Below are positions 6,655-39,691 of a DNA stretch of 49,812 nucleotides, piece by piece. The notes beneath the pieces were generated by a model. The model did no database searches, was not told where the DNA came from, and worked only from the letters and a program-made list of their open reading frames with translations. Numbering within the stretch: position 1 is the stretch's first letter; each line of letters starts with the position of its first letter. The translations under genes were made by a program, and so were the position numbers. Location of the stretch: sequence record PP740689.1; one strand, 5' to 3'. Source of the DNA: Pseudomonas phage vB_Pae_SG_WM_Sew_P27.

Positions 6655-8753
6655 GCATGGAAATGAACAAAGCGCTGGACCTGCTGCGCGAAATCCGCCC
6701 GAGCATTCCGAAGGAAGTGTTAGAGCTTTGGTGCAAGGACCGCGATGCATTCCTAGCATCGCATCCTGCGGTAGAGCAGGCAGGCGGGGATGAGCGCGCC
6801 AAGTTCGAATACTGGGCCAGTGATGAAGGAATCTACCCGAAGGCGGTTGAGCGCTCCGGCAACTGTTACAAACTGGCGCAGACGCAATCGTACTGGATGG
6901 CCTGGCAAGCCCGCGCCGCCCTGGCGCAACCCTCCCCGAAGTGCTCGACCTGCGGCGGTACTGGCATGGTCGATGATGGCGAGATTGATTGCTACTCGGA
7001 CGGCACGCCATTCGAAAACGGCCCTGTGAAGTGCGTGAAGGATTGCCCGGCCTGCAAAGCGCAACCCTCCCCGGCGCAGGCCGAGCAGCCCACCGCCGAC
7101 GACTACGAGGAAGTCCTGGCAGATCACCGTCGTCTGGTACGCGAGATGGACGTGCTGCTGAACGGAGAGGCCTACGCAGCCAAGCAGGCGATGCTGTGCG
7201 ACCTGGTCAGCCAGGTGGAGGCCGAGGTTCGCAAGTCCGGCCAGCCGCTGCTGGTCAGCGCCGAGCGATACCGCTGGCTGCGCAATGACGACAACTGGGG
7301 CGCCGACGATTCCGAGGGGCAAGGTACCAGCAAGTGGGCCAACCTCGGCGAACTCTCCGGCACTGACTTCGACGCCTATCTGGATCAGCTGCGGGGCTAT
7401 AACCCGGTAATGGACATCGACCCCGAGCATTCCAAGGCCATCGCGAAGCGCGGGCGTGACGCCATCGTAGCGCAGGCAGAGGGCGCTCCAGTGATCGGAT
7501 GCCTCTGCGGTATGCCGATGACTGAGGGTCGCCATTCGCCAGGTGGTTGCACCAGCCTTGAAGAGTTCGCACCACACCTCTCCGCCCAGGCGCAGGCCAA
7601 GCAGGCGGAGCAGCCGGAGGTTGTGGCGCGCGTCGATGGTACGGATGAGGACTGGTTCATCCAACCAGAGGACGAAACCGAGCTGCACAACGAAGGTCTG
7701 CTGTTCGCCGGATGCGAGCTTGGCCGCATGATTGATTTCGACCGCATCGTCGGGGCGCTGCGGGCGGAGAACGCGAAGCTGAGCGAAGCGCTCGACGAAT
7801 GCGATGGAGACCGCTGGAAGCTGCGATCCGAGCGCGACGCCGCTAATGCTCGCCTGCACGAAGTAGCAACGGCCTGCGCTACGGCAGAGCAAGAGCGCGA
7901 CGCCGCCCTGGCCAGGGTCGCGGAGCTTGAGCAGAAAAGCGCAGGTTCCTGGACAGTCGATACATCCTGCGGACGGCCAATCCTCATGTACGAAGGCTGT
8001 AGCGTGATCGAGGATCAGACCGCCTATGAAGTTATCCGGATGATTAAGTGGATCGGGGAACTTGAGAGGCAGGAGCCGGTGGCGACCGTTGCGAAGGTGC
8101 CGGGTGAAGACTGGAACAGCCTTGATTTCCATCGCGACCTTCAACACATGCAGCCGGGCACGAAGCTCTACGCCGCCCCTGTAGCCCAGGCTCAGCAACT
8201 CAAAGACCTGGACAAACAGTGTCGCGATGACGTGGCACGTGCGCTCGGTTTGCGTCCGAACCAAGAGCGCGGTTTCGCATGGTCATATCTGCTGGCGTCG
8301 ATCAAGTCATGCGTGAAGGCCTCCGGGGATAGCGCCCAGGCTCAGCACAGCGTGCCTGATGGCTGGGTGCAATCACTGCCGCTGAAGGATCACCAGCCCT
8401 GCAAGTCGAACGAGGACAGAGCAAATGGATACGTAATCCCGATCTATTCCAGGCCGGTTCCGGTTGAGGAAGCCTTGCGCAAGTTGCGTGCTGTCCTCTG
8501 CGACCCAGTTGGCAACGTTGTCATTGACGGCAGTGATGGTGATCGAGAAGAGGTACAGCGAGCGCTCGGCATACTCGCCGCCGCGCCCGGCAACTCGGCT
8601 CAGCACAGCGGTCCGGAGGGCTGGAAGCTGGTTCCGATTGAGCCGCTTCTCAACATGATGAGCGACAAGGACCACGACACCCGAATTACGGCTGAGCGCC
8701 AACTGCTTTCCATACTCGCCGCCGCGCCCGGCAAGGAGGGGAACGATGACTGA
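6651..8753 (+). CDS. large (700 aa) early-region protein: Cys-rich Zn-ribbon-like segment, central coiled coil, degenerate C-terminal repeats
   Basis: ATG 6651 overlaps the upstream stop (ATGA). Contains CSTCGGTG...DC...CVKDCPACKA, the heptad-rich segment LRAENAKLSEALDE...ARVAELEQK, and repeated ...AAAPG[NK].. / SAQ(A)QHS(V/G)P(D/E)GW units near the C-terminus. Confidence 0.6.
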   Translation: MSMEMNKALDLLREIRPSIPKEVLELWCKDRDAFLASHPAVEQAGGDERAKFEYWASDEGIYPKAVERSGNCYKLAQTQSYWMAWQARAALAQPSPKCSTCGGTGMVDDGEIDCYSDGTPFENGPVKCVKDCPACKAQPSPAQAEQPTADDYEEVLADHRRLVREMDVLLNGEAYAAKQAMLCDLVSQVEAEVRKSGQPLLVSAERYRWLRNDDNWGADDSEGQGTSKWANLGELSGTDFDAYLDQLRGYNPVMDIDPEHSKAIAKRGRDAIVAQAEGAPVIGCLCGMPMTEGRHSPGGCTSLEEFAPHLSAQAQAKQAEQPEVVARVDGTDEDWFIQPEDETELHNEGLLFAGCELGRMIDFDRIVGALRAENAKLSEALDECDGDRWKLRSERDAANARLHEVATACATAEQERDAALARVAELEQKSAGSWTVDTSCGRPILMYEGCSVIEDQTAYEVIRMIKWIGELERQEPVATVAKVPGEDWNSLDFHRDLQHMQPGTKLYAAPVAQAQQLKDLDKQCRDDVARALGLRPNQERGFAWSYLLASIKSCVKASGDSAQAQHSVPDGWVQSLPLKDHQPCKSNEDRANGYVIPIYSRPVPVEEALRKLRAVLCDPVGNVVIDGSDGDREEVQRALGILAAAPGNSAQHSGPEGWKLVPIEPLLNMMSDKDHDTRITAERQLLSILAAAPGKEGNDD

Positions 8754-9261
8754 ATGGCGCGAAGTGGTTGGTTATGAAGGACTATACCGAGTATCAGAGC
8801 ATGGCGAAGTCATCGGGGTTATACGCAAAAAGATCAAAAAGCAATTCCCCAATACTAGCGGATACATGTCAGTAGGTCTGTGCGCCAATGGCAGGCAGAA
8901 GAACACCACGGTCCACAAAATTGTGGCCTTGGCGTTCCTAGATAAGGCCTTCGAGTCGCTAGAAGTAAATCACATAGACGGAGATAAGCTAAATAATCAT
9001 CACTCAAATCTAGAATGGGTTACGCGCTTGGAAAATCTAAATCATGCAAAAAAGATGGGGCTTCTTAGAGAGTCCACCAAGGTAGTCGCAATGCCCATAG
9101 ACGGCTCGGTTGGATATTTCTTCGTATCCATCAATCAAGCCGTTAAGAGTGGATTTAATAACGGAAACATTTACAACTCCATAAACGGGAAATCCCCAAA
9201 TCACAAAGGCTTCAATTGGGCGAAAGTGCCTAGTGAAATGCAGATAGGTGAACAGCCATGA
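8746..9261 (+). CDS. HNH homing endonuclease with NUMOD4 motif
   Basis: EWREVVGYEGLYRVSEHGEV (NUMOD4) and VNHIDGDKLNNHHSNLEWVTRLENLNH (HNH_3). Locally AT-rich relative to its flanks. Overlaps the upstream gene by 8 nt. Confidence 0.85.
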   Translation: MTEWREVVGYEGLYRVSEHGEVIGVIRKKIKKQFPNTSGYMSVGLCANGRQKNTTVHKIVALAFLDKAFESLEVNHIDGDKLNNHHSNLEWVTRLENLNHAKKMGLLRESTKVVAMPIDGSVGYFFVSINQAVKSGFNNGNIYNSINGKSPNHKGFNWAKVPSEMQIGEQP

Positions 9262-9857
9262 CCGAAGAAGAACATGATGCCAAGCTGCGCGCCGAGGCCC
9301 AGGCGCTAAGGGAGGAAGTCGAAAAAGCACAGAATGCGCTCGCTTTCACTGAACAGTGGCACGGGGTTCGGTATGAGCGTTTATGGCACTGGGCTCATGC
9401 CGAACTGGACGAAGAACAGAAGCGACGCTACTTCAACATCGTGGCGAACGGCACCGCAGAACATAGCGAGCCACCAACCTACGCGCAGCAACTTTGCCGA
9501 ATGAAACATCGGTACGAATGTGCAGAGAAGGAAGCCGCAGCACTGCGCGCAAGGGTGGCTGTTGTGCCGGATGGGTACGCGCTTGTGCCGGTTGAGCCAA
9601 CGCGGGAGATGTTCATTGCCATCAACAAGGAGGACGACAAGGCCTATGCCGGTGGCTGTCATCACGGCGCACAGTTTGAATGGCTGTGGGATGCTGCGAT
9701 TGAAGCCGCGCCTCGCCCCAACAGCCTGACGGTCAGCGAGGGGCTGTTGCGGCGGATCGTAACTCCGGCACTTACCAGTTCGGATGCGCACGACCGCATT
9801 GGCGCACTTGAAGAGTTGCGCGCCCTGCTGAGCGAGCAGGATGGAGGGAAGCCATGA
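9258..9857 (+). CDS. hypothetical phage protein
   Basis: ORF track. ATGA coupling at both ends. Confidence 0.55.
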   Translation: MTEEEHDAKLRAEAQALREEVEKAQNALAFTEQWHGVRYERLWHWAHAELDEEQKRRYFNIVANGTAEHSEPPTYAQQLCRMKHRYECAEKEAAALRARVAVVPDGYALVPVEPTREMFIAINKEDDKAYAGGCHHGAQFEWLWDAAIEAAPRPNSLTVSEGLLRRIVTPALTSSDAHDRIGALEELRALLSEQDGGKP

Positions 9858-10057
9858 GCATGGAGTTCATTCGAATGGCCTACAACGTTCCCTGCAAGCG
9901 AGGCGGAAAGGTCATCTACCGAGGTCGCGGCACCGAGGAGCACGGGACGATAACAAGCGCAAAGGGCGCCCACCTCATGATCAAGCTAGACGGCGAAAGC
10001 AGGCCAAGGAGGTTCCACCCGACCTGGGCGCTTCAGTACCTTCCGGAGCAGGCATAG
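9854..10057 (+). CDS. hypothetical small basic protein
   Basis: ORF track. Coupled to the upstream gene. Confidence 0.45.
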   Translation: MSMEFIRMAYNVPCKRGGKVIYRGRGTEEHGTITSAKGAHLMIKLDGESRPRRFHPTWALQYLPEQA

Positions 10058-10233
10058 CCACCCATCGCCATCCACTGTACGCACCGATGCCGGAATCCCG
10101 GCATCGCTTACAGGCCGCCTTAGCACCAGCCTGAAACCAGCATGGTTACTGGGTTTCAGCGCTTAAACCAAGCTACTTGGCACCACCTTACAGGCCACCC
10201 CAAACCAACGAATCCGCCCCCGGAGGACCAACC

Positions 10234-10383
10234 GTGGACAACGAAAACAAAACCTTAATCGCCCAGGCGCTGGTCATCGCGCTGATCGTCTTCGGCATCT
10301 TCCGGATAGTCGGGGACTTCCAGAACCTATACGAGCAGACCGAGTTGAAAGGACAGGAGTTGAGCAGATGGAGCAAGCAGTGA
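10234..10383 (+). CDS. small single-TM membrane protein (49 aa from GTG)
   Basis: GGAGGA RBS 6 nt before GTG at 10234, inside TTG-started track ORF 10177..10383. Hydrophobic LIAQALVIALIVFGIF. Confidence 0.35.
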   Translation: MDNENKTLIAQALVIALIVFGIFRIVGDFQNLYEQTELKGQELSRWSKQ

Positions 10384-10661
10384 GAGACGAGTTTGAAGCA
10401 GCCTACCCGCTGCCCGATGGAATGGAGCGAAACGGTGAAAGCTACACCGGAGGGGAAATGTGGTGGCTATGGGAGGAACGCTGGCAAGTGTGGCAGAGAA
10501 GCCGCGCGGCTCTGAGGGTGGTGTTGCCGGACGACGGCATCGAGGACTGTCAACGTGACTGGCCGAACTCCTGCCGTGACAACTTCGATACCGGCTACTG
10601 CTATGCGACTGACCGGATCACTCAAGCCCTCCAGCAAGCCGGAATCGAGGTGAAGGAATGA
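10368..10661 (+). CDS. hypothetical phage protein (Trp-rich)
   Basis: ORF track with GGAG RBS. Confidence 0.5.
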   Translation: MEQAVRDEFEAAYPLPDGMERNGESYTGGEMWWLWEERWQVWQRSRAALRVVLPDDGIEDCQRDWPNSCRDNFDTGYCYATDRITQALQQAGIEVKE

Positions 10662-10840
10662 TCGACTTCAGAGGAATCACCGTTTTTCGCATGGATGACT
10701 TGGCGCCAGGAACGATGATCGTGAGCCCGGACGTCTACGACATGCTCAAGGGCAAAGAGGCTGATCCGCAGTTGATTAGCGAGGCCAGGCGAAATGCTGA
10801 GAAGGTCGAGGAAATGCTGAAGGGAGTGAGGAAGCCATGA
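10658..10840 (+). CDS. hypothetical small protein
   Basis: ORF track, ATGA-coupled. Confidence 0.4.
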   Translation: MIDFRGITVFRMDDLAPGTMIVSPDVYDMLKGKEADPQLISEARRNAEKVEEMLKGVRKP

Positions 10841-11205
10841 CCGACCACGCAGAGCTGCGGAGGGTGGCTGCGCTGGCTCATCCAGACGCCGAATGGTTCA
10901 TCGCGCGAAACCTTGATCACCCGAATATCGACAAGCCGGCAGCGTCATTCATCGCCACCGCCACCCCCAAGGCCGTCCTCGCCCTGCTGGACGAGATCGA
11001 CAGGCTCAAGGCGGAGAACGAGGCGCTGAGGGGAGCGCTACAGGCCGTGGAAGCCGAAGTCGACGGGAATCTCCGCCCACTTACCCGCGACCTCGTGAAC
11101 ATGGTCAGCGGCTTGAATAACGGCACTCACCCGAATGACATCTACGACCACTGCGACGAGATCGAAAGGATCATCGACGCAGCCCTAGAAGGAGCAACGC
11201 AATGA
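10837..11205 (+). CDS. Ead/Ea22-like protein
   Basis: ATPKAVLALLDEIDRLKAENEALRGAL matches the conserved core of Ead/Ea22-like lambdoid early proteins. Confidence 0.55.
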   Translation: MTDHAELRRVAALAHPDAEWFIARNLDHPNIDKPAASFIATATPKAVLALLDEIDRLKAENEALRGALQAVEAEVDGNLRPLTRDLVNMVSGLNNGTHPNDIYDHCDEIERIIDAALEGATQ

Positions 11206-11516
11206 ACGACCGCGAACTACTCGAACTGGCGGCGCGGGCGGCGGGCTATCAGTTCTCATACCCGTACCACTCCATCTCCATCCCGTTAATCCTGGCAGAG
11301 ACTGGGCGGTGGCGACAATGGGACCCACGACACGACGACGGCGACGCGCTGAGGCTGGCAGTTCTGCTTAATCTGGAGATCCATAGCCCAAAGAGCAATC
11401 CGACAGTCATGTTTAGAACTGCTGAAAACGATGTCTTCTATCAGGACACGTGCATTCGACTAGCCATCGTCCGCGCCGCCGCCGAGATCGGCAAGTCTAT
11501 GGGAGGTGGGGAATGA
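11202..11516 (+). CDS. hypothetical phage protein
   Basis: ORF track, coupled. Confidence 0.5.
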   Translation: MNDRELLELAARAAGYQFSYPYHSISIPLILAETGRWRQWDPRHDDGDALRLAVLLNLEIHSPKSNPTVMFRTAENDVFYQDTCIRLAIVRAAAEIGKSMGGGE

Positions 11517-11947
11517 GCGAAACCGTAGAAGTGAAGATCTGGGATCTTGAGGGGGCAGCGCTTAATTGGGCCGTTGCAATGGCTGAAGGCGAAGAGGTCA
11601 TTGTCCATGACATTGGACAGTACCGTTATGACGTGAGAGGCGGCATTCACTGCTGCAAATATGGCTGCACCTTTGGCCCTCGCTCGATTACTGAAGAAGT
11701 CGAGCGATACGAACCTTCGGACTCATGGGCTCAAGGCGGACCACTGATTGAAAAGCACCGCTTTGAATTCGAGTGGATCGGTAGCGACTGGCATGGCGAA
11801 CCGCTGCGATTCTTCACAGCCTGCGGCTGCGATATGCCAGCTGATGCAGCATCGGCAGGTCCAACCCACCTAATAGCAGCCTGCCGCGCCATCGTTCGAG
11901 CGAAGCTGGGCGAAACCATCAACGTCCCAGCCGAACTCATCAAGTAA
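11513..11947 (+). CDS. NinX-like (DUF2591) protein
   Basis: Internal ATG with GGAGGTGGGGA RBS. N-terminus MSETVEVKIWDLEGAALNWAVAMAEGEEV resembles the NinX/DUF2591 start (...ALDWAVAKAEG). Confidence 0.55.
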   Translation: MSETVEVKIWDLEGAALNWAVAMAEGEEVIVHDIGQYRYDVRGGIHCCKYGCTFGPRSITEEVERYEPSDSWAQGGPLIEKHRFEFEWIGSDWHGEPLRFFTACGCDMPADAASAGPTHLIAACRAIVRAKLGETINVPAELIK

Positions 11948-11991
11948 CCCAGCCGGGCGCCACTAGCTCTCCCTGAGCTAACCCGGCTGGG
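11948..11991 (+). other. nested hairpin between nin-like genes and xis (10-bp outer stem CCCAGCCGGG/CCCGGCTGGG, inner TAGCTC/GAGCTA)
   Basis: Read directly. No T-run follows, so not a canonical intrinsic terminator. Confidence 0.5.
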
Positions 11992-12050
11992 CGTCTAAAT
12001 CCTACCATCATGCCCTCCCCGGCAATAGCTGGGGCGGAGAGGTATTGTCT

Positions 12051-12386
12051 ATGAGTACCGCAGAGCAAATCGAGTACGAAGACAAGGTGCCCGAACAGGT
12101 CATGGCGGCGCTGCTTGGGATAACCTACCGCGCCCTACAAACCAGACGGTCAAAGGGACAGATTCCAGAAGGCGTCTGGAACAAGGTCAACGGGAAAATA
12201 ATCTACAGTCGACGGAGATACGACGAATGGCTCGAAAGCCTTTGGGTATGCCCACCGGGGTGGAAGTCATCGGCAACTCTATCCGTATCCGCTTCATGTG
12301 GAACGGAACAAGGAAGTGCGAAACACTCCCCTATCCCGCGACGCAAAAAGGGATTAAGACTGCATCCGGTCTTAGAGATCAGGTAG
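12051..12386 (+). CDS. xis: excisionase/AlpA-like small DNA-binding protein
   Basis: ATG 12051 with GGAGAGG RBS. MAALLGITYRALQTRRSKGQIPEGVW resembles the winged-helix excisionase family. Lies immediately upstream of int. The ORF as read extends 160 nt into int in another frame. Confidence 0.55.
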   Translation: MSTAEQIEYEDKVPEQVMAALLGITYRALQTRRSKGQIPEGVWNKVNGKIIYSRRRYDEWLESLWVCPPGWKSSATLSVSASCGTEQGSAKHSPIPRRKKGLRLHPVLEIR

Positions 12387-13444
12387 TCCAGGCAATCAAG
12401 CTGGGCATCATGGATGAAGCCCGGTATGCAGAGTTCTTCCCCGGGTCTGCGATTGCGGAATCGGTCAGCAGCCAAATCCCCCTGTTCGGTGAGCATGCTC
12501 AACTCTGGCTAGACAGCCGAGAGATCGTGCTTGGGACACGCAAGAACTACAAGAGCATCCTCAACCAATACTGGATGCCACATCTAGCAGTAGCCCGGCT
12601 TGATCAGATCACCCCTACCCTCTTGCGCCGAATCATCAGCAGCATCGAGTGGACGTCGCCAGGCGTGAAGCGAAACGCGATGTTCAAGCTGTCGACGATC
12701 CTAGATTCCGCTGTGAAGGACGGTCTGATCAAGAAGAACCCGATGGCGCCCCTTGAGAAGCCTCGGGTGTCTAAGAAACTGGTAGATCCATTCACCCGGG
12801 ACGAGGCAGAACGCATCATCCAGCACCTGTACGCGACCCTTGGGAAGTACTCAAGGATCTACGCCGCACTGTACGAATTCCTGTTCTTCACTGGTCTTCG
12901 GCCTGGAGAGGCGTTCGCCCTTCGATGGGACGAGGTAGACGAAGAGGCACGACGTATTCATGTGTGCCGGATCGTCATAGATCGCGGGATCGAGGAACGC
13001 GTAAAGACCAAGCATGAGCGCGACGTGCTGCTCAATGATCGAGCATTGAATGCCCTGGTAGAGGCCAAGCGGATTGCGCGCCTGAGGCGCGTCGCATCAG
13101 TCTCGGAGTTCGCGGTCAGCCCGTTCGTATTCCCGCCCAGCAAAGGCGGGCTGTGGATCAAGGAGCCAAGTGTTACCATAAAGCACTTCCACGCCGCGCT
13201 TGATGCTCTATCCATCCGAAGGCGCCGGCAGTATGACACCCGCCACACATACGCGACCATGTGCCTGATGGCTGGCATGAACCCTGCGTTTATCGCTGGA
13301 CAGCTAGGCCACAGCGTGCAGATGCTGCTATCGACCTATGCCAAGTGGCTGAACTCCGCCTCGGATTGGAGCGAGTTGGAGAAGCTACAGACCAGGGTTA
13401 AAACTGGTACGGAATTGGTACAGGAAGCAGAGGAAGGCGCGTAA
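12227..13444 (+). CDS. int: tyrosine integrase
   Basis: Classic N-terminus MARKPLGMPTGVEVIGNSIRIRFMWNGTRKCETL. C-terminal catalytic region has R...HTYATMCLMAGMNPAFIAGQLGH...LSTYAKW (R-H-x-x-R-Y). Confidence 0.9.
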   Translation: MARKPLGMPTGVEVIGNSIRIRFMWNGTRKCETLPYPATQKGIKTASGLRDQVVQAIKLGIMDEARYAEFFPGSAIAESVSSQIPLFGEHAQLWLDSREIVLGTRKNYKSILNQYWMPHLAVARLDQITPTLLRRIISSIEWTSPGVKRNAMFKLSTILDSAVKDGLIKKNPMAPLEKPRVSKKLVDPFTRDEAERIIQHLYATLGKYSRIYAALYEFLFFTGLRPGEAFALRWDEVDEEARRIHVCRIVIDRGIEERVKTKHERDVLLNDRALNALVEAKRIARLRRVASVSEFAVSPFVFPPSKGGLWIKEPSVTIKHFHAALDALSIRRRRQYDTRHTYATMCLMAGMNPAFIAGQLGHSVQMLLSTYAKWLNSASDWSELEKLQTRVKTGTELVQEAEEGA

Positions 13445-14321: not shown

Positions 14322-14639
14322 ATGAAACCAGTCCAATTCCTTCTCAGAGGGTATGCGGAGCACAAGGATGGCGTATGGCAAGCGTTCTGCATCGATCTGT
14401 GTCTGGCAGTACAGGGTGAGTCTCGTGAAGAGGTGATCCGTAAACTCCACGAGCAAACCTACGATTACCTGAAAGACATCTTCGAGGGTGAAGACTACCC
14501 ATACGCCGCTCAGCTCCTCGCCCGCAAAGCACCGCTGGTGCAACGCCTGAAGTATCACTACCTAGCATACAGGGAGCAGGTCAGCCGACTGCGCGATGTG
14601 TTCACCTTCAAAGACGCCATGCCTCTTAAGCTGGCGTAA
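14322..14639 (+). CDS. hicB: HicB-family antitoxin
   Basis: RBS GAGGAGG. N-terminal Y.E..DG.W.A.C.DL.L...GESREEVI.KL matches the HicB RNase-H-like domain. Its stop abuts the hicA ATG (TAAATG). Confidence 0.7.
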   Translation: MKPVQFLLRGYAEHKDGVWQAFCIDLCLAVQGESREEVIRKLHEQTYDYLKDIFEGEDYPYAAQLLARKAPLVQRLKYHYLAYREQVSRLRDVFTFKDAMPLKLA

Positions 14640-14882
14640 ATGGCAAGGCTCCACCCCGTCACATGCAAACAGGTCAAGGCAGCTCTAAAAGCGATGGGGT
14701 TCGAGCCAAGGCCAAGAACGGGAACATCTCACGAAAAGTGGGTGAAGACTGCGGGTAGCAACCGATGGATAGTAACAGTCGATTGCCCCAAATCTCCCTT
14801 CAGCAATGACCTGATCGCCTCCATGGCCAGACAGGCTGGAATGTCGACAAAGGCATTCCATAGGAAGTGCTGCGAATTCTAG
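14640..14882 (+). CDS. hicA: HicA mRNA-interferase toxin
   Basis: KQVKAALKAMGFEPRPRTGTSHEKWVK...VTVDCPKSPFSNDLIASMARQAGMS is the HicA/YcfA-like fold with the conserved His. Confidence 0.8.
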   Translation: MARLHPVTCKQVKAALKAMGFEPRPRTGTSHEKWVKTAGSNRWIVTVDCPKSPFSNDLIASMARQAGMSTKAFHRKCCEF

Positions 14883-14904: not shown

Positions 14905-15271
14905 ACAATCCCAGTTCCCGATCAATCACCTGTTCAGTCGCACCACACTGCTCGCCGGCGGTGCGATCACGCAGCAGACGGTTGGCGGCGGAATACCGCT
15001 CGGCGGCCTGCTGTCGTCCCTGCTCCACCGCCTGGGCTGCATCCCGGGCCCGCTGTTCGCCGGCCAGGCGCAGCTCGGCAACCTGCCGGACCTGCTCCGC
15101 CACTGCGGACTCCAACTCTCCCCGGGCGGCACGGCAGGCAGCCAGATCCGCGCTCGCGGCATCCAACTGCGGCCGGTAGTGCCGCGCGCCGAGCCAGACA
15201 CCGCCGGCGGCGCCGAGGCCGACCAGCACCAGGCAGGCCAGCGCGATCGAGACAACACGGGCCGAGATCAC
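14903..15271 (-). CDS. Rz-like i-spanin
   Basis: GTG start overlaps the endolysin stop (GTGA). N-terminal TM segment VISARVVSIALACLVLVGLGAAGGVWLG followed by a coiled-coil periplasmic domain. Immediately downstream of the endolysin. Confidence 0.65.
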   Translation of the reverse strand: MISARVVSIALACLVLVGLGAAGGVWLGARHYRPQLDAASADLAACRAARGELESAVAEQVRQVAELRLAGEQRARDAAQAVEQGRQQAAERYSAANRLLRDRTAGEQCGATEQVIDRELGL

Positions 15272-15897
15272 GACAGCACCCTCTTCGCCCGCTCCCACAG
15301 CGCCAGGCGCTCCGCCTGGCCGTTCGTGCCGCCGTTGATGCGCCGAGTGATGGCGGCGAACTCGCCGCGGTCGGCCAGGTCGTTCAAGCCGTGACTGGCC
15401 CACCACCAGGCCGCCGATAGCGCAGCGAACTCTGGCTGCTCGAGCAGTTCCGGCTCCGCTTCCAGCGGCTGGCCCAGCCCGGCGCCGGCAGCGCGGTAGT
15501 TCGACCGGCCGGTGATCTGCAGCAGCCCGCGCCCGCGGAAGCGCCAGCCGTCGCCCGATGCCTCGTCGCCATTGCCGTTGCGCGAGGCGTAGGCGTTGTT
15601 GGCGATGGCTCGGGGGTTGCGCGCCAGGCGCTGCGCCAGGGCGTTGGGCTGGCCGTCGGCGCCGAGGTACCGGCTCGGCCAGGTCGCAGCCAGGCCACGG
15701 GCACTGTAGTTGAGGTTCTCCACCAAGCGGGTCAACTGGCCGCTTTCGTGGCCGACCTGGGCGAGGAACGTCGCCGCGCGCACAGGCGACGTGATACCGA
15801 AGCGCGTCATCCCGCGGTTCAGCGCACCAACAAAAACGCCGGCCCTCGAGCCGGCGTTCGGGAGGATATGCAGCAACTGCTGCTCAGTGATGGGCAT
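15268..15897 (-). CDS. glycoside hydrolase family 19 endolysin
   Basis: FLAQVGHESG and GRGLLQITGRSNY motifs of GH19 (chitinase class I-like) lysozymes. ATG 15897 with GGAGCGG RBS. No N-terminal TM, so a holin is required. Confidence 0.9.
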   Translation of the reverse strand: MPITEQQLLHILPNAGSRAGVFVGALNRGMTRFGITSPVRAATFLAQVGHESGQLTRLVENLNYSARGLAATWPSRYLGADGQPNALAQRLARNPRAIANNAYASRNGNGDEASGDGWRFRGRGLLQITGRSNYRAAGAGLGQPLEAEPELLEQPEFAALSAAWWWASHGLNDLADRGEFAAITRRINGGTNGQAERLALWERAKRVLS

Positions 15898-15990
15898 GTT
15901 CCGCTCCAATTGGGTATGATCTGCGCCGCCCTCGATGTGGCCACAGCACTAACAAACCTTCCCTCATCAGGGAACGAACAGGAAGGCATA

Positions 15991-17472
15991 ATGATCTTCA
16001 GTTCCGCTGCTTTCATACTGGCCTACTTGCCAATAGTGTTCTTTGTTTATTTTGGACTAAACAAGCTAAGGATGATCTCATTGGGGAAAATATGGCTAGT
16101 ATTAGCCAGTGTTTTCTTCTATGGATACTGGAGCGTTGACTATATACCACTCCTGATAGGGTCAATTTTATTCAACTTTGCAGTAGGGTGCGCGATCTCC
16201 CCGACCTCAAAGAATTTATCCATTGGTGGATACAGAAAAACAATACTAGCATTAAGCATTACTGCGAATCTGGCTCTGCTTGGATACTTTAAATATGCGA
16301 ACTTTTTTATTGAGAACCTGAATGCTGCGGCCGGATCAGAATTTGCGCTACATGAAATAATCTTGCCTCTTGGTATTAGCTTCTACACATTCACTCAAAT
16401 TGCATTCTTGGTGGATAGCTACAGAGGCGAAGCAAAAGAATACGACCTAATAAATTACGCTTTATTCGTTACATTCTTCCCGCATCTAATTGCCGGCCCA
16501 ATACTCCACCACAAGGAAATGATGGGTCAATTCAAGTCGAAATGGACATGGGCAGTACGCTATAGAAATATTCTTACTGGACTGTTTATATTCAGCATCG
16601 GTCTATTCAAGAAAGTTATGATCGCTGACACATTCTCTGTATGGGCAGATGCAGGATTTTCGAGCGGTGCCAATCATGATTTTTTCAGCTCATGGGCGAC
16701 AAGCCTTTCATACACGTTCCAACTATATTTTGACTTTAGCGGTTACTGCGACATGGCCATCGGCGCGGCCCTTCTCTTTAACATATGGCTCCCAATAAAT
16801 TTCAACTCCCCCTACAAGGCGCTTGATATTCAAGATTTCTGGCGGCGCTGGCACATGACCCTAAGCCGCTATCTGCGAGACTACCTTTACATCCCGTTAG
16901 GTGGAAACCGCTGTTCTTCCGCCAGAGTTTACTTCAACCTAATGGCAACGTTTGTTCTTGGTGGCCTATGGCATGGAGCAAGCTGGATGTTTGTGATATG
17001 GGGGGCGCTGCATGGTGGAGCGCTTGTCATCCACAGAATGTGGAAAAATCTCGGCATGTCTATGCCAAGACCTTTGGCTTGGGTTGTGACATTTCTATTC
17101 GTAAATATAACCTGGGTATTTTTCCGAGCCACATCCATGCAGGAAGCCATGTCAATCCTTGGAGGGATGATTGATGTTAGATCTATCTCATCGGAAAGCC
17201 TGGCTGAAATACCGACAAGCGATCTTGCATGGGCAGGGGTAATTTCCGACAAGCTTTTACAATTTCTGCCAATCGGTGTTGTTGCGAACTCGCTGTGCTA
17301 TGGAATGATTGCAGCAGCATTTTTGATAATTTCACAGAAAAACTCATTCGAGCTTTCAACGACCGGAAGGATCGGAAATTTAAAAGCAATATACATGTCA
17401 ATACTATTCTGCTTGGCAATGTACTCTACACTACAATCAACAAGCACCGTATTCCTATATTTCAATTTCTAA
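15991..17472 (+). CDS. MBOAT-family membrane O-acyltransferase (AlgI/DltB-like)
   Basis: Multi-TM protein with FYTFTQIAFLVDSYRG, FPHLIAGPILHHKE and LWHGASW (MBOAT His). RBS AGGAAGG. Strikingly AT-rich relative to the phage. Confidence 0.85.
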   Translation: MIFSSAAFILAYLPIVFFVYFGLNKLRMISLGKIWLVLASVFFYGYWSVDYIPLLIGSILFNFAVGCAISPTSKNLSIGGYRKTILALSITANLALLGYFKYANFFIENLNAAAGSEFALHEIILPLGISFYTFTQIAFLVDSYRGEAKEYDLINYALFVTFFPHLIAGPILHHKEMMGQFKSKWTWAVRYRNILTGLFIFSIGLFKKVMIADTFSVWADAGFSSGANHDFFSSWATSLSYTFQLYFDFSGYCDMAIGAALLFNIWLPINFNSPYKALDIQDFWRRWHMTLSRYLRDYLYIPLGGNRCSSARVYFNLMATFVLGGLWHGASWMFVIWGALHGGALVIHRMWKNLGMSMPRPLAWVVTFLFVNITWVFFRATSMQEAMSILGGMIDVRSISSESLAEIPTSDLAWAGVISDKLLQFLPIGVVANSLCYGMIAAAFLIISQKNSFELSTTGRIGNLKAIYMSILFCLAMYSTLQSTSTVFLYFNF

Positions 17473-17483
17473 GGATTATAGAA

Positions 17484-18602
17484 GTGAAAGGGAAAATATA
17501 TTCATTCATATTCATTTCTATCGCTGTTCTAGGAATAGCTCCTGCCGTAAACATTGAGCAAGCGATTAGCTCAAACAAACCCCTTCCAGAAACTATAGGA
17601 GGGTGGAAGGACCTTTCCTACAACATGGATTTTACACTACCCTACATCGGGATGATTTTCTACAAGCTAGGAATATCCATTAGTCCTGAAAAGGTTATTA
17701 TTGGAAGAGACGGATGGATGTTCCTCGGCGATTTCTTCGAAAACTCTGTAACCGCAAAACGAGTCGGAGTCACGGACTCCGACACTGCAAAAACAGATAT
17801 TATCAAAAACGTTTCTAACGGATGGCGTGAATGGTTTTCGTCAAATGGCGTTAGGGGCTACTATGTTTTAATTGGCCCTGACAAGTCCACGATATACCCC
17901 GAGAACCTTCCTGACTGGGCTGCACCTTCCGGTACAAGCATTGCCCAGCACATATACAGAAAATCTCCAGATATTTTTGTATATCCAAAAAATGAACTTA
18001 TTAATATAAAATCTAGATCCACCGCACCTTTATACTACAAGACAGACACTCACTGGAATACACTAGGAGCTTGGGTTTCTTTTTATGCACTGGCGAAGCG
18101 TATAAAATCTAACTCCCCAGATATATCTATACCTGAAGAACCAAAACCAGAGGCTGTGATTATAAGGAAACGGGGAGGCGGCGACCTTTCTGCATTCCAA
18201 AGGATACGTCCGTACATCACGGATGCAGAGGTGGATCTGTCGGACAGTTCCATACGTAAAATCCATGTTAGCCAAATAGACTTCGAAAGCATGGAGAAAG
18301 TCTACTCGGGAGACAATGTTCAAGTTACAGCTCCCGTTAAGCCACTATTGGTCCGATCAGAGGGCGCGCTTAACAACAAGCGTGTTCTGTGGCTTCGAGA
18401 CTCTTTCGGATCTGCTATATCCCCCTTTATGGCCGCCACGTTCTCAGAAACCCTACAACTGCATCATCAGCGTTCTAGCCATAAAGTAATTGCCGATCTG
18501 GTTGATAGGTACAGACCGGATATCGTAATAGTGACTATCGTAGAAAGAAACACAAGGATAGGAATCCTTGTGTCCCCATCTCCGAAACTGTCAGGTAAAT
18601 GA
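17484..18602 (+). CDS. AlgJ/AlgX-like SGNH-type O-acetyltransferase partner (signal-anchored)
   Basis: GTG start 12 nt after the MBOAT stop with AAGGA RBS. N-terminal anchor IYSFIFISIAVLGIAPA. The TDTHWN motif is characteristic of the AlgJ/AlgX/PatB families. Same low GC as its neighbour. Confidence 0.75.
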   Translation: MKGKIYSFIFISIAVLGIAPAVNIEQAISSNKPLPETIGGWKDLSYNMDFTLPYIGMIFYKLGISISPEKVIIGRDGWMFLGDFFENSVTAKRVGVTDSDTAKTDIIKNVSNGWREWFSSNGVRGYYVLIGPDKSTIYPENLPDWAAPSGTSIAQHIYRKSPDIFVYPKNELINIKSRSTAPLYYKTDTHWNTLGAWVSFYALAKRIKSNSPDISIPEEPKPEAVIIRKRGGGDLSAFQRIRPYITDAEVDLSDSSIRKIHVSQIDFESMEKVYSGDNVQVTAPVKPLLVRSEGALNNKRVLWLRDSFGSAISPFMAATFSETLQLHHQRSSHKVIADLVDRYRPDIVIVTIVERNTRIGILVSPSPKLSGK

Positions 18603-20753
18603 CCAAGTGCCTGATAGCACTCTGCCAACCCATTTCGTAGACGTTAACGGCTCAAACTCTATGAGAGAACCTACCTCAGTAGAGGTCGCCACTGCACTGG
18701 TCCTTGACCCGGAGGCACCGATCAGGAAGTTTGTTCCAGAGGTGGTTGCAATCGTCAGAGCATTTGCGCCGGACTTTAGAATGCGTATTGGCGCAGCCCC
18801 TGGGATCGGGGTTGGCAAGGTCTGCGTACCTGCAACAGTCACATTGTACGTGCGCCCAGCGTTATAAGGCGACAGGGTGGTTCCAGCAGTAGCAAGAGTT
18901 ATGAACCTGCTATCGCAGTTTGACATCCCAACCCTAGTAGAGGCGCTATAGTATTTACTATTGGAATTATCCTGTTCGAATGAGTAGTTAACTCTCCCAC
19001 TCAGCATCGAGCTATCTGCCGATATCCTATATGAGTAACCAGTGACGCCGGCTTTATGAATGTCAGGCCCGATGTCTAAAGATACAATTGCAACCGGAGC
19101 GACGTCTACAGAGTGGTCGGCATTGCTGTACTCATTCCCGCCACCGCGAACAACTCCACCGGTTATGGTTAGGCCGCCCTGGCAAGAAACCCGGTTATTC
19201 GACCACTCAACAGCAGACGGATTCGCCCCACCAATGGTTCCAAGTTTTGAGGAAAGTCCGGCAAAGGCGTTACAGGAAATCCTGCCAGTACTACCAATAA
19301 CCCTAAACCATTCCTGTGAAGGCTGGCTTCCAGTGCTAGGAGTGTGCTGACAACCATCGATAATCAGCCCCTCGACATTATCTATATCATGGCAGCGCTC
19401 GGGGGATGTATTGATGGGGTTAAAGTAGCTCGCAATAATGTTGAGGCTGTGCCTTGTGCGATTTCCAGCATGCAGAACCATGGACTTCGCGAAGTCGTAA
19501 AATGTGCAATTCAGAAAAGTCACACCCCAGCCGCCGAATGAAAGCCCTGGAACGTTTATCGTCCCATCAGAGTAGAACCCATATTGAGCCCCATCGAAAA
19601 CGACGTCCTCGCATCTGATGAATTCATCAAACGTCGCCCGTATACAGCTTCTCGCGGTGGTGAGACGACTGGCAAGAAATCCACCATAACAGCCAACCCG
19701 CACCCTTTGCAGAGTAAGGCCGGGAGAAGAGGTGGTTTCTATGATATCGCCGGTGAATTGGCTGTCATCATACACAACATCAATGTTGTTGAATGTTAGA
19801 TTCCTGCCGCCATTCCCATAGTGCCTGAAGAAGAAGCCAGAGCTTGTACCTCTCACTACCAGAGTAGTAGCCGCCTTCATCGCCTGGTTCTTGCCACGGA
19901 ACCCCTGGCCAACGATGGTCAGGCCGAGGTCCTGGGTAATATCGAAACTATCAGGCTGGAGTGCAAAGACCCCGTTACCGAAGTTCAGTCGCCCGGATGC
20001 ATACGCTGTGACAGTGGGACCGCCGATGTACTGCACGATCGTCTCCGGGTCGTGCCGGAGTGCGATGATTGCAGCCCACACCGCAGCAGTAGTTCCCGCA
20101 GCATCAGAACCATCATTGCGAGCGCCGAACCATTCGGCCCACACGCCGTGCGTTATATCGCGCTTCCAGCGGCCGGTGGTGATACCGGTTGCCTGGATGA
20201 TCGAGCCGCCGTTATCGTCCTCTGTCGAGGTTGAATCCCAGTGGAACTCTCCGCCGCCGACCCCCGGAGTTTCCGCGTAGTATCCGACAACCAGCGCGGC
20301 ATCCCCGGCGAATCGCCCTGCGATGGCCCGGAGGTCAGCAACCGAGTCAACCCGGCGTACGCCGCGACCGATTTCTTGCGGGAACCCTTGGTCTACTTGG
20401 ATAACAAGCAGGCTCTGGTCCGTCGCCCAGTTCCCGGTCAGATTGACGGGGAACGATGCAGGACGCTTGACGCTGTAGAGGTTTCCGTCGCGCTGGATCA
20501 GTTGGGTCGGACGGTCTACGGTCAGCGGTGAGCCGTCGACGTACTCCAGGACTCCGGGTTCGAAGCCTTGGGCGTCCAGCCAGCCGTTGAACTGTTCCTC
20601 ATACCCTTTCATCGTTGGGCGACTAACGCCGAAACGATCATTCCACGTAGTGTTTACCCGGTCATTCATCGCCGCATCGAAGTTCTCGGCGTTGTCATAC
20701 AGATCACGCGGGTCTTTTGAGCCCAGCGGGTTACCGGTGGCGTAGGTCGTCAT
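18591..20753 (-). CDS. tailspike/tail fibre with pectate-lyase-superfamily beta-helix (polysaccharide depolymerase-like)
   Basis: VWAEWFGARNDGSDAAGTTAAVWAAI (Pectate_lyase_3-type motif) and repetitive Gly/Asn-rich beta-helix-like sequence. Last structural gene before the lysis genes. Confidence 0.8.
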   Translation of the reverse strand: MTTYATGNPLGSKDPRDLYDNAENFDAAMNDRVNTTWNDRFGVSRPTMKGYEEQFNGWLDAQGFEPGVLEYVDGSPLTVDRPTQLIQRDGNLYSVKRPASFPVNLTGNWATDQSLLVIQVDQGFPQEIGRGVRRVDSVADLRAIAGRFAGDAALVVGYYAETPGVGGGEFHWDSTSTEDDNGGSIIQATGITTGRWKRDITHGVWAEWFGARNDGSDAAGTTAAVWAAIIALRHDPETIVQYIGGPTVTAYASGRLNFGNGVFALQPDSFDITQDLGLTIVGQGFRGKNQAMKAATTLVVRGTSSGFFFRHYGNGGRNLTFNNIDVVYDDSQFTGDIIETTSSPGLTLQRVRVGCYGGFLASRLTTARSCIRATFDEFIRCEDVVFDGAQYGFYSDGTINVPGLSFGGWGVTFLNCTFYDFAKSMVLHAGNRTRHSLNIIASYFNPINTSPERCHDIDNVEGLIIDGCQHTPSTGSQPSQEWFRVIGSTGRISCNAFAGLSSKLGTIGGANPSAVEWSNNRVSCQGGLTITGGVVRGGGNEYSNADHSVDVAPVAIVSLDIGPDIHKAGVTGYSYRISADSSMLSGRVNYSFEQDNSNSKYYSASTRVGMSNCDSRFITLATAGTTLSPYNAGRTYNVTVAGTQTLPTPIPGAAPIRILKSGANALTIATTSGTNFLIGASGSRTSAVATSTEVGSLIEFEPLTSTKWVGRVLSGTWSFT

Positions 20754-20813
20754 GCAAATTCTCCGGGCATGAAAAAGCCCGCTCTATGGCGGGCTCTGGA
20801 TTTGTATGTGCGG

Positions 20814-23543
20814 TCAGTTTGGTGCGCTGGCGTTGTCGTATGTGTAGACGCGCTCGTCGTAGTTCGTCGCGCGAACGGACGCCGCGGTATTGCCGCTGGG
20901 ATCGATGGAACTGATCAGGGCCGGGTATGGATTTCCCAGCAGCAGGTGCGGCGGTTCGATTTCCCACGAAACATCAGGGACGAAATCGATGCTGGGAATG
21001 CTCAGCCGGTAGTCGTCGATCCTCGACGCCGGATATCCACCGGAAACCGTTCCGTCTGGGCGCCGCAGGTAGAGCGCTGGCGAGTTCAGCAGTGACCAGT
21101 CGAGCGGCTCGCTGGACTCGATCAGGACCGAGTTTCCAGAGATAACGAACGATTTCAGGTATGCGCTCTGCGCCAGGCCAGGGCCGGGAACATCGCCGGC
21201 AAGGGCCACATAATCCCAGAACTCGCTGTTCAGCGCGTCTAGGCCGGTATCGAACGAATACTCAGTTCTCCGGTATCGCTGAGCCATCCGGCGGCGCATC
21301 CCGTAGCGCCAGGCGCGATCGCGGTTTGTGACACCGACAGCCGTGATCTTCTCGACCTTCCTGCCAACATCGCCGGGCAGGCGGCACTGGACGGTATCTT
21401 CGATCCAGCCGTTGGCATTGACGAACTCTACATCGACGCCGTCGTAGTCGTCCTCAGACGGCGCGCTGATGCTGATCCTCAGTGGACCATCCATGTTCTG
21501 CGGCGAATACATGTGCCCGAACGTGGTCCTAGGCTCGTCCCTGGCCGCAGAGATCACGCCGCGCTTAATGGTCTTCTCCGCATATCCGGCTGCAAGAACG
21601 TCATCCATTATCTGCGCGACCGTGACCTTGCCGTCCTCGTAGATCATGTCGAACGTGTCGCCGCGGGCCTTCCAGATTGCGTCCAGCCGATCGAGTTCCT
21701 CAAGATCGAGATCCGCATCGGTGTAGCCGCGTTCCTTCGCGATGTAGCAGAGGAATGGGACGATGTCTCGCGTTGCTATCTCGGGTGTCCATGCACCGTT
21801 CTGCCGAGTCGGTAGCATGCGGGTAGCCTCTACCGAGACGCGGCTTTCTGTCTGCGCCGCGATACGGTCAGACGACCGATATCGAACAGCCATTGTTGTG
21901 ACGCCGGCGTAGGACGACGGAGCCTGGAGGCGCGCGCGCATCCCGTACCACTGGGTGCGGTCTCGGTACTCGGATGTTGAGTTGCCGCCCTGGTTGACGA
22001 ACACTTTTCTGATGCGAAACTCGGGCCGCATCATGTACGGCAGCGAGATGCCGTCCGTAAAACCCTGCTGGTCGAGAGAACTGCCAGCATGGTTCTTACT
22101 GACCGTCGTCCATGCGCCGCCGATGGCCATGTCTCGCCACTGGATGTCGTAATAGGTGCGGATCTGGTAGATCTGCCCTTCCCTGCCTACACCGCAAAGC
22201 CCTTCCGGGCAAAATACGTCGATCTCGACGAAGTTGGTCTTCTCCGATACTGGGCACGCCGGGAAGGGACCGCGCCAGCCCCCTTCTAGGCTGGTCGGAT
22301 CAATGGTGACTCGGGACGTAGACGAATTGAGAGCGGTGAATCCTGGCCAGTCAACATCGACACCGCCCGCACTGGTCAGCCGCTCGACTGTGAGTTGCTG
22401 CGCGCTGTACGCCGTGATCCGATAGCGCAGTCCGCGCGGGCCGATTGCGGCGCTGCCGGACCCGGTCTGGAGCGCATTCGCCGGAGAACCGTTGCTGTAG
22501 TTGAGCGTCATCGACGTGGAGGTGATGTCGTTTACGATGTAGAGGCCGCCGTTGGTGCCAACAACCTCGATCTCATCGCCAACATCCAGCCCGAGCTGAG
22601 CGATATCCCCCGTCACGACGTCGCGATTCGTCCCGCCGCCATCGTTAACCGAATAGGGGTACATCGCCTCAACCCGCAGGATCGTCCCCGCAACCCAGTC
22701 AGAGGGGAACGACCCGGCTCCGGCAGAAATGATGATGTTCGTTCCGGAAAACGTGAACGTAGTTGCCGACGGGTTCGGGGTGAGATTGGAGCTCTCGGTC
22801 AGGTCCAGGCCGGCATTACCAGTTGAGCTCGCACCAACTTCCTCAACCAGGTGCCACCAGACCGATGCCGGGTGCCCGCTGACGTTCTGCCCTGGTTCGA
22901 AAATCTGGAAAGAGGCATCAGCGCCCAGTGCCAGGAACGACGTGTCACCGATTTTCGCTGCACCTTCGGCGATCTGGAACCGACCACGGCCAATGCACAA
23001 CAGCATTTCGGTCCACTGCTCACGCGGACCGGCGAAATACTTCCTGGGCGGCAGGATGTAGTCGGGATAAATCAGACGACGGCCAGCAACTTCGCGGATC
23101 GCATCGCCGAGTTTTACCTTGTTCCCGCGCGCGCTGGTTTCAGAGAGCGACGCGCCCTGCCCGGGGTTCGTCGGCATGCCGGGCAATTGAGGCATGAGCA
23201 TCCGAAAAACCGATTGCGCCCCCTTGAAAAGGGCCGCAGTAATCGTGAACGGATCAGTCCCGCGCGGGAGCTTGTAGATCCTCACAATGTCGCCGCGGTC
23301 GATGATGCGCTCGGCCCACTCACCGGGATGGATGAACTCCTCATGGGCCTTTTTCTGCTTGTCGGTGAGGTCATCGCAGAGCGCAACCTCAGCGGGGACA
23401 ACACCGATAGAGAACGGGTGGGCGTCGTGGCAGCGGTACCCGGGCGAATTCGCGGTCAGCCAGGCATGAATCGTCATCCGGCGGCCGATCGGATGCCGCT
23501 CCAGCGGTTCTCCGTCAAGGAGCGATGGGTAGATTTCGATCAC
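20814..23543 (-). CDS. tail tip / host-specificity protein (J-like)
   Basis: Size (909 aa) and position after the K-like NlpC/P60 gene and before the tailspike. The real start could be a few codons in. Confidence 0.65.
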   Translation of the reverse strand: MIEIYPSLLDGEPLERHPIGRRMTIHAWLTANSPGYRCHDAHPFSIGVVPAEVALCDDLTDKQKKAHEEFIHPGEWAERIIDRGDIVRIYKLPRGTDPFTITAALFKGAQSVFRMLMPQLPGMPTNPGQGASLSETSARGNKVKLGDAIREVAGRRLIYPDYILPPRKYFAGPREQWTEMLLCIGRGRFQIAEGAAKIGDTSFLALGADASFQIFEPGQNVSGHPASVWWHLVEEVGASSTGNAGLDLTESSNLTPNPSATTFTFSGTNIIISAGAGSFPSDWVAGTILRVEAMYPYSVNDGGGTNRDVVTGDIAQLGLDVGDEIEVVGTNGGLYIVNDITSTSMTLNYSNGSPANALQTGSGSAAIGPRGLRYRITAYSAQQLTVERLTSAGGVDVDWPGFTALNSSTSRVTIDPTSLEGGWRGPFPACPVSEKTNFVEIDVFCPEGLCGVGREGQIYQIRTYYDIQWRDMAIGGAWTTVSKNHAGSSLDQQGFTDGISLPYMMRPEFRIRKVFVNQGGNSTSEYRDRTQWYGMRARLQAPSSYAGVTTMAVRYRSSDRIAAQTESRVSVEATRMLPTRQNGAWTPEIATRDIVPFLCYIAKERGYTDADLDLEELDRLDAIWKARGDTFDMIYEDGKVTVAQIMDDVLAAGYAEKTIKRGVISAARDEPRTTFGHMYSPQNMDGPLRISISAPSEDDYDGVDVEFVNANGWIEDTVQCRLPGDVGRKVEKITAVGVTNRDRAWRYGMRRRMAQRYRRTEYSFDTGLDALNSEFWDYVALAGDVPGPGLAQSAYLKSFVISGNSVLIESSEPLDWSLLNSPALYLRRPDGTVSGGYPASRIDDYRLSIPSIDFVPDVSWEIEPPHLLLGNPYPALISSIDPSGNTAASVRATNYDERVYTYDNASAPN

Positions 23544-39615: not shown

Positions 39616-39691
39616 TGGTGCCGGCAGCAGGAGTCGAACCCGCAACCCTCTGATTACAAATCAGCAGCGCTCCCTGTTGCGCCATACCGGC
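39616..39691 (-). tRNA. tRNA-Thr (anticodon UGU)
   Basis: Reverse complement GCCGGTATGGCGCAACAGGGAGCGCTGCTGATTTGTAATCAGAGGGTTGCGGGTTCGACTCCTGCTGCCGGCACCA folds as a cloverleaf: 7-bp acceptor stem (one G-U), D-stem GCGC/GCGC with G18G19, anticodon loop TTTGTAA, T-loop GGTTCGACTCC, discriminator A and encoded CCA. Confidence 0.9.

Follow-up and report, generated by a model that had tools for sequence, protein, structure and literature searches.

A two-gene cassette between endolysin and tailspike

The DNA examined here is sequence record PP740689.1 of Pseudomonas phage vB_Pae_SG_WM_Sew_P27, a temperate phage of Pseudomonas aeruginosa; the whole stretch of 49,812 nucleotides (nt) is referred to below as the window. 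Our subject is a pair of genes between those for the endolysin and the tailspike, the first encoding an MBOAT membrane acyltransferase and the second a protein of the AlgJ/AlgX-type, SGNH-like acetyltransferases (Table 1). The MBOAT open reading frame (ORF) begins with an ATG at 15991, preceded by the sequence AGGAAGG, and ends with a TAA at 17470-17472; the second ORF, on the same strand, starts with a GTG at 17484 and stops with a TGA at 18600-18602. The spacer between the two genes is 11 nt. The tailspike ORF, on the minus strand, converges with the SGNH-like gene and overlaps it by 12 nt, and the endolysin gene, also on the minus strand, diverges from the MBOAT gene across an 81-nt spacer. 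No further ORF occupies the slot between endolysin and tailspike in the ORF list of the window.

The two genes differ in composition from the phage that carries them. GC content is 0.431 in the MBOAT gene and 0.438 in the SGNH-like gene, whereas the remainder of the window has 0.594. At third codon positions (GC3) the two genes have 0.47 and 0.42; the gene of the tail-tip protein J has 0.735 and that of the endolysin 0.888. The GC content of the cassette is below that of its flanks in every background compared. A first-pass annotation of this DNA had described both genes as far more AT-rich than the phage, and had placed them 12 nt apart, between tailspike and endolysin, convergent with the tailspike and overlapping its stop. 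Composition and coordinates bear this out, the second start lying 12 nt past the first stop.

The entire window matches temperate P. aeruginosa siphophages, and it is a mosaic relative of JBD44, vB_Pae_LC3I3 (hereafter LC3I3), DO4 and JBD88b; we rejected the possibility that it is a prophage with host flanks, as the matches to phage genomes extend over all of it. The segment 15000..21000 is 98% identical to JBD44 and LC3I3, and gp41, gp40 and gp39 of JBD44 agree with the three genes here in order, strand, the 12-nt overlap and position between endolysin and tailspike. JBD44 differs in its flanking sequence, of which 44-74% is covered, at 96-98% identity. In GenBank, gp41 is labelled 'MBOAT family protein' or 'putative poly(beta-D-mannuronate) O-acetylase' (JBD44 and LC3I3 records), and gp40 is hypothetical. 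The 15910..15990 spacer is 97% conserved in JBD44, in a prophage carrying a second allele of the cassette (L004) and in a prophage of another backbone (L012). This spacer probably contains the cassette's own promoter; a sigma-70-like match, TGGGCA-18-TATGAT, lies at 15891-15920, but shuffled sequence has matches of this kind just as often.

Table 1. Genes and features of the endolysin-tailspike region, with positions in the window.
Feature	Position	Strand	Evidence or remark
GH19-type endolysin	15268..15909	-	PF00182, E = 1.7e-06; annotated endolysin in JBD44; left border of the cargo slot
Divergent intergenic region, 81 nt	15910..15990	+	ribosome-binding site AGGAAGG upstream of the MBOAT gene
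MBOAT membrane acyltransferase, 493 amino acids (JBD44 gp41)	15991..17472	+	PF03062
AlgJ/AlgX-type SGNH-like acetyltransferase, 372 amino acids (JBD44 gp40)	17484..18602	+	PF16822
Tailspike/receptor-binding protein, 720 amino acids (JBD44 gp39)	18591..20753	-	identity to gp39; PHROG matches
Exchangeable 4.9-kb module (endolysin 5' stub, spacer, MBOAT gene, SGNH-like gene, whole tailspike gene)	15882..20808	.	blastn

The first protein is identical to JBD44 gp41 at 491 of its 493 residues and matches the Pfam family PF03062 (MBOAT) well above threshold (E = 1.6e-38; 133.3 bits, cut-off 27). The motifs FYTFTQ, HLIAGPI and WHGASW are found at residues 131, 165 and 327, and a hydropathy scan gives at least six hydrophobic segments. 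In alignments to the DltB structures 6bug and 8jem (E about 1e-26), His288 (in WHM) and His328 (in WHG) match DltB histidines, the latter within GLWHGASW, which aligns with GFWHGITW of 6bug. The WHG histidine is kept in all other MBOATs checked, namely that of JBD44, those of six relatives in prophages and viral contigs, and two chromosomal copies. The C-terminus, F488-L-Y490-F-N-F493, fits the acyl-shuttle motif FxYxxF, and all nine relatives checked, from Pseudomonas prophages, enterobacterial viral contigs and a Nitrosospira chromosome, share the ending VFLYFNF. In PatA, the tyrosine of FxYxxF is first auto-acetylated, and the SGNH partner then receives the acetyl group from it (PMC12148441); the shuttle chemistry is thus taken from the literature, and the motif from the present analysis. 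A DltB-like role in D-alanylation was also considered and rejected: the DltB equivalog model of NCBIfam, TIGR04091, scores 155.3 bits, under its cut-off of 375.

The second protein, identical to JBD44 gp40 at 369 of 372 residues, matches PF16822 (ALGX) in Pfam (E = 6.7e-13; 49.3 bits, cut-off 26.5); NCBIfam gives no match for it. Its one hydrophobic segment in the hydropathy scan, at residues 5-23, is an N-terminal signal anchor. Among 40 homologues of 38-78% identity, two blocks, T187-D-T-H-W-N192 and D306-S-F-G309, do not vary, and neither does the predicted triad D188/H190/S307 that they contain. In sequence comparison to solved structures, the blocks align with KTDHHWN and KDSF of Bacillus cereus PatB1 and with TDTHW of AlgJ. 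The AlphaFold model, built from a sequence alignment, is a confident one (predicted local distance difference test score 92.5, predicted template modelling score 0.87), and its top Foldseek matches in the PDB, all at probability 1.0, are AlgJ (4o8v), B. cereus PatB1 (5v8d and 5v8e), a DHHW protein (4nzk) and AlgX (4knc and 7ula); nothing else in the PDB was returned under E = 0.01.

These results sustain what the first-pass annotation had read from the quoted motifs, an AlgI/DltB-type MBOAT followed by a signal-anchored protein of AlgJ/AlgX/PatB type with TDTHWN: the matches to the families it had named as checks, PF03062 and AlgX/AlgJ (the latter through PF16822), are significant, and structure prediction for 17484..18602 returns the AlgJ/PatB1 fold, with triad residues predicted from sequence. 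For the two proteins Pfam gives MBOAT families alone for the first and ALGX/DHHW for the second, with no acyltransferase-3 (AT3) family (PF01757) for either, and PHROGs has no family for them. Judged at the level of sequence, the two genes have every feature expected of an MBOAT-SGNH acetyl relay, with no third gene such as AlgF. One small difference between alleles was seen at the start of the SGNH-like gene: in the second allele (L004 8001..8009) the start is an ATG two codons upstream (MEVKGK...), and at 17478..17486 of the window the corresponding codon is ATA, with the start moved to the GTG at 17484.

The tailspike and an exchangeable 4.9-kb module

The adjacent tailspike is identical to JBD44 gp39 at 713 of 720 residues, and its PHROG matches include families of tail spikes and of exopolysaccharide (EPS) depolymerases. 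Precomputed annotation assigns PF27114 (Phage_tail_beta) to relatives with 96% identity or more; the tailspike itself, to which the first-pass annotation had given a pectate-lyase fold, has no Pfam match, and its one sequence match in the PDB under E = 0.1 is short, aligning residues 134-202 to 6c72. For JBD44 gp39, plaque halos consistent with depolymerase activity have been reported, as has a critical role of position 289. We presume that the tailspike is a reader or depolymerase of the non-acetylated O-antigen.

Cassette and tailspike move together. By blastn, 15882..20808 of the window has 97% DNA identity to positions 8399..13324 of a prophage (L011), and 15822..20849 is shared, also at 97%, with positions 8339..13366 of another (L012). 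The backbones of these two prophages are different from that of the window: protein J is 49% identical, the tape-measure protein belongs to another family and the lysin is different, and the first 30-90 nt or so of the GH19 endolysin gene persist in both copies as a stub. Because this block is common to prophages whose neighbouring genes differ, spike and modifier constitute one recombination module of 4.9 kb. Composition within the spike gene fits the same interpretation, as GC3 is 0.705 in the first 600 nt, which encode the virion-attachment end, and 0.50-0.59 in the remainder. That low GC3 runs on from the cassette into the tailspike gene suggests a common foreign origin for the cassette and the receptor-binding part of the spike.

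On two P. aeruginosa contigs (L011 1..8367 and L013 1..2626) we also observed a gene with a Bro-N domain just upstream of the MBOAT gene. In both, the end of the prophage adjoins genes for conjugative type IV secretion (TrbL, VirB8, TrbI and others), with no lysis genes between.

Probable O-antigen acetylation and the alternatives

The JBD44 counterparts have been studied experimentally. Taylor et al. (bioRxiv 10.1101/2024.03.05.583538) describe JBD44 genes 40-41, which lie between tail spike and endolysin, as O-antigen-acetylating genes that confer serotype O10, and as a 'two gene Sie system' with an anti-Kronos effect. A JBD44 lysogen deleted for genes 40-41 accumulated about 10^4-fold fewer free phages overnight, and its mitomycin-induced yield was normal (bioRxiv 10.1101/2024.03.05.583538). 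The receptor of JBD44 is the O-antigen of lipopolysaccharide (LPS), according to published work including the same preprint, and a 2026 review (PMC13434031) restates the findings on genes 40-41. O10 and O19 have an O-antigen trisaccharide in common, their sole difference being a 2-O-acetyl group on L-rhamnose in O10 (PMC11200240). The feature is therefore already known, as the same genes in JBD44, 99% identical, have been described, deleted and given a phenotype.

Given this identity, we consider it probable (about 0.85) that the pair, carried by the prophage, is a two-component O-acetyltransferase of the MBOAT-SGNH kind that acts on the O-antigen of the lysogen's LPS and so converts the serotype of the cell, reportedly from O19-type to O10-type. 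Domains, catalytic residues, acyl-shuttle motif, fold, signal anchor and identity to JBD44 come from the present analysis, and O-antigen acetylation, the O10 phenotype and the self-adsorption phenotype from the literature. Three comparisons favour this reading as well: Wzy-like O-antigen polymerase genes in the corresponding slot of related phages, convergence of the pair with a tail fibre or spike in every other Pseudomonas and enterobacterial prophage compared, and a gene of the uridine diphosphate N-acetylglucosamine 2-epimerase family beside chromosomal homologues in other Pseudomonas. The first-pass annotation had proposed lysogenic conversion in which the glycan recognised by the adjacent tailspike is acetylated and the phage and its relatives are excluded, and this agrees with what is reported for the near-identical JBD44 genes, including the 10^4-fold deletion effect. 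It had left the glycan open among EPS, O-antigen and others; LPS O-antigen stands, and alginate or other EPS does not. It had also thought an MBOAT/SGNH pair unusual as phage cargo: the enzyme class is indeed unusual, but the pair is not new, having been published for JBD44.

A mechanism can be proposed from these observations. In the lysogen the cassette would be transcribed against the direction of the late genes, and its promoter would probably be one of its own, within the 81-nt spacer next to the endolysin gene. By analogy with the PatA/PatB paradigm, His328 of the MBOAT protein would pass acetyl from cytoplasmic acetyl coenzyme A to Tyr490 of FLYFNF on the periplasmic face. The AlgJ-like partner would then take the acetyl group onto Ser307 of its Asp188/His190/Ser307 triad and transfer it to the O-antigen, the substrate named in the literature, probably at O-2 of L-rhamnose. 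O-antigen modified in this way would be neither bound nor cleaved by the phage's own tailspike. Progeny and related phages would be spared loss on lysogens, a form of superinfection exclusion and the 'anti-Kronos' effect reported from the JBD44 40-41 deletion. Cassette and matching tailspike would be inherited jointly as one recombination module.

Several points weigh against this interpretation, or against parts of it. Scanned for promoters and terminators, 15200..19200 yielded numbers of matches equal or close to those expected by chance from shuffled sequence. PA14, the propagation host of JBD44, is conventionally assigned to serotype O10; a conversion to O10 fits poorly with this, unless the strain chemically resembles O19. 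O10 and O19 are not distinguishable by in silico typing, and the O-2 site on rhamnose is drawn from a single comparison, the difference between these two serotypes. The Methods of the preprint speak of 'proposed serotype converting genes', and the acetylation chemistry goes back to work that the preprint cites (its reference 46; bioRxiv 10.1101/2024.03.05.583538). A 2026 preprint implies that JBD44 still plates on a PA14 waaL::Tn background, so that the O-antigen may be a barrier for the spike to process and not the terminal receptor. If JBD44 does plate on this mutant, the O-antigen, once acetylated, may shield a deeper receptor because it cannot be cleaved, and the spike would be defeated either way.

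Temperate phages are known to alter their own receptor in this manner. The cargo genes of D3 (Iap, Wzy-beta and Oac) and the oac and gtr genes of Sf6/P22-type phages likewise change the O-antigen receptor and lead to superinfection exclusion. The Oac proteins of D3 and Sf6 are single AT3 proteins; unlike these, the system here consists of an MBOAT protein and a separate SGNH-like protein, without an AT3 family in Pfam. PatA/PatB and B. cereus PatB1 resemble the cassette in their architecture. Common features are a self-contained pair of genes, the MBOAT histidine, a tyrosine shuttle in the C-terminal FxYxxF motif and a Ser/His/Asp partner outside the cytoplasm. PatB1 ranks with the top structural matches of the second protein, yet the two are only about 15% identical. 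PatA/PatB act on peptidoglycan and PatB1 on a secondary cell wall polysaccharide, whereas the substrate here, according to the literature, is LPS O-antigen and the genes are phage-borne. A 2022 review names peptidoglycan as the only process with a known overlap of MBOAT and AT3 enzymes.

Among the alternatives, the one that fares best accepts acetylation of LPS and differs in the benefit, which would be gained mainly against heterologous O-antigen-dependent phages, R/F-type pyocins, antibodies or host immunity, and not against adsorption of the phage's own progeny. Serotype conversion generally alters susceptibility to phages and antibodies, D3 being an example (summarised in bioRxiv 10.1101/2024.03.05.583538), and the existence of two alleles, 78% and 87% identical in their two proteins and accompanied by a 96%-identical spike, may reflect diversifying pressure. 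The strong direct phenotype reported, however, is the roughly 10^4-fold loss through self-adsorption, and the tight linkage of the cassette to its cognate spike fits self-exclusion. We therefore regard this as unlikely to be the main benefit; the two are not mutually exclusive, and benefits against other phages, pyocins and antibodies may well coexist with self-exclusion.

Acetylation of alginate or another secreted EPS, which would alter the biofilm and not the phage receptor, is suggested by the poly(beta-D-mannuronate) O-acetylase label in the LC3I3 and JBD44 records, by the membership of the partner in the AlgX/AlgJ Pfam family and by AlgJ being a top structural match. As in AlgI/AlgJ/AlgF/AlgX, an MBOAT protein is combined with an AlgJ/AlgX-fold protein bearing DxHW and DSF motifs. 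The likeness to AlgJ is nevertheless remote (sequence E = 1.9e-4, with 16-17% identity in structural alignment), and the alginate system has AlgF, AlgX and the alg operon, whereas the window holds no AlgF or AlgX-type partner and no alg context, and the phage-borne pairs are coupled to a tailspike in the loci compared. JBD44, moreover, depends on LPS O-antigen, and the deletion phenotype is a loss of free phage on lysogens. We consider an alginate or EPS substrate very improbable.

Least credible of all is a PatA/PatB-like peptidoglycan O-acetyltransferase that modulates lysis or shields lysogens from muramidases: PatA/PatB is the other known self-contained two-gene MBOAT-SGNH system and the cassette adjoins an endolysin gene, but the partner is of AlgX/AlgJ/DHHW type with the order Asp-x-His then Ser, the module boundaries tie the cassette to the tailspike while the endolysin is replaced by unrelated lysins in other backbones, and the published phenotype concerns the receptor and not lysis, the induced burst being normal.

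If the O-antigen reading is correct, it is through the cassette that lysogens in this group of phages shift their O-serotype and stop adsorbing the phage's own progeny and its relatives. This bears on serotyping of P. aeruginosa (O10 versus O19), on the host range of phages in therapy and on prophage ecology, as has already been stated for JBD44. Of wider interest is an MBOAT-SGNH relay that would act on O-antigen, a task usually carried out by AT3 enzymes, and that is genetically tied to a tailspike presumed to read the unmodified glycan. What the present comparison adds to the JBD44 literature is modest: the spike-plus-modifier module, and the occurrence of the cassette in enterobacterial prophages.

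Relatives of the cassette

Other P. aeruginosa prophages carry a second allele in this slot, with an MBOAT protein 87% identical, a partner 78% identical and a spike 96% identical to those of the window. More distant is a pair, 53% identical, that a prophage of Pseudomonas sp. CCM 7891 carries between endolysin and tail fibre. In the phages PP9W (L008 2483..3637), Marin (L010 1611..2765) and BUCT566 (L009 2456..4098) the slot is instead filled by Wzy-like genes, variously labelled 'polymerase', 'O-antigen ligase family' and 'oligosaccharide repeat unit polymerase', each beside a different spike. The presence of Wzy-like genes in these related phages indicates that the endolysin-tailspike slot is a general cargo site for O-antigen conversion.

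A pattern-limited scan of IMG/VR found seven loci, three of which have an MBOAT and AlgJ-like pair convergent with a tail fibre or spike. In a P22-like enterobacterial prophage (L018 1..5099), flanked by sequence similar to Escherichia phage Gally and Shigella phage Sf6, the pair directly follows a tailspike with Head_binding and Beta_helix domains; P22-like phages usually carry gtr or oac genes in this region. On a siphophage contig distantly similar to Klebsiella phages (L017 1770..6854), the pair is convergent with a tailspike of 720 amino acids that has Tail_spike_N and GDSL esterase domains. There, an acetylating module stands beside a spike that may deacetylate.

Chromosomal copies were found as stand-alone pairs. 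Two of them, from other Pseudomonas and about 40% identical (L021 695..4573 and L022 661..4695), lie beside genes of the uridine diphosphate N-acetylglucosamine 2-epimerase family and comEA-like genes; such sites may lie at the margin of an LPS locus, and the phage cassettes could plausibly have come from there. We tentatively suggest, at somewhat short of even odds, that the JBD44-type pair belongs to a broader, uncatalogued class of MBOAT and AlgJ-like O-antigen acetyltransferases that end in VFLYFNF, are linked to spikes and hop between unrelated temperate phages. The backbones concerned are those of Pseudomonas siphophages (at least two), the P22-like enterobacterial prophage and the siphophage contig resembling Klebsiella phages, and the class may derive from pairs in chromosomal LPS loci. 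In that case, O-antigen acetylation would have in MBOAT-SGNH systems a second route of general occurrence, beside AT3 enzymes, and spike-plus-modifier would be a unit of host-range evolution.

Two minor features of the phage genome lie outside the module. One is a gene for tRNA-Thr (anticodon TGT) at 39616..39691 on the minus strand. The other is a pair of plus-strand genes at 14322..14882, within the lysis/spanin region and in a stretch outside the alignments to JBD44. The downstream member (14640..14882) encodes a HicA-type toxin (PF07927; PHROG label 'toxin'); the gene immediately upstream (14322..14639) encodes a partner of 105 amino acids that has no Pfam match, is presumably a HicB-like antitoxin, and coincides in position with an annotated coding sequence in LC3I3.

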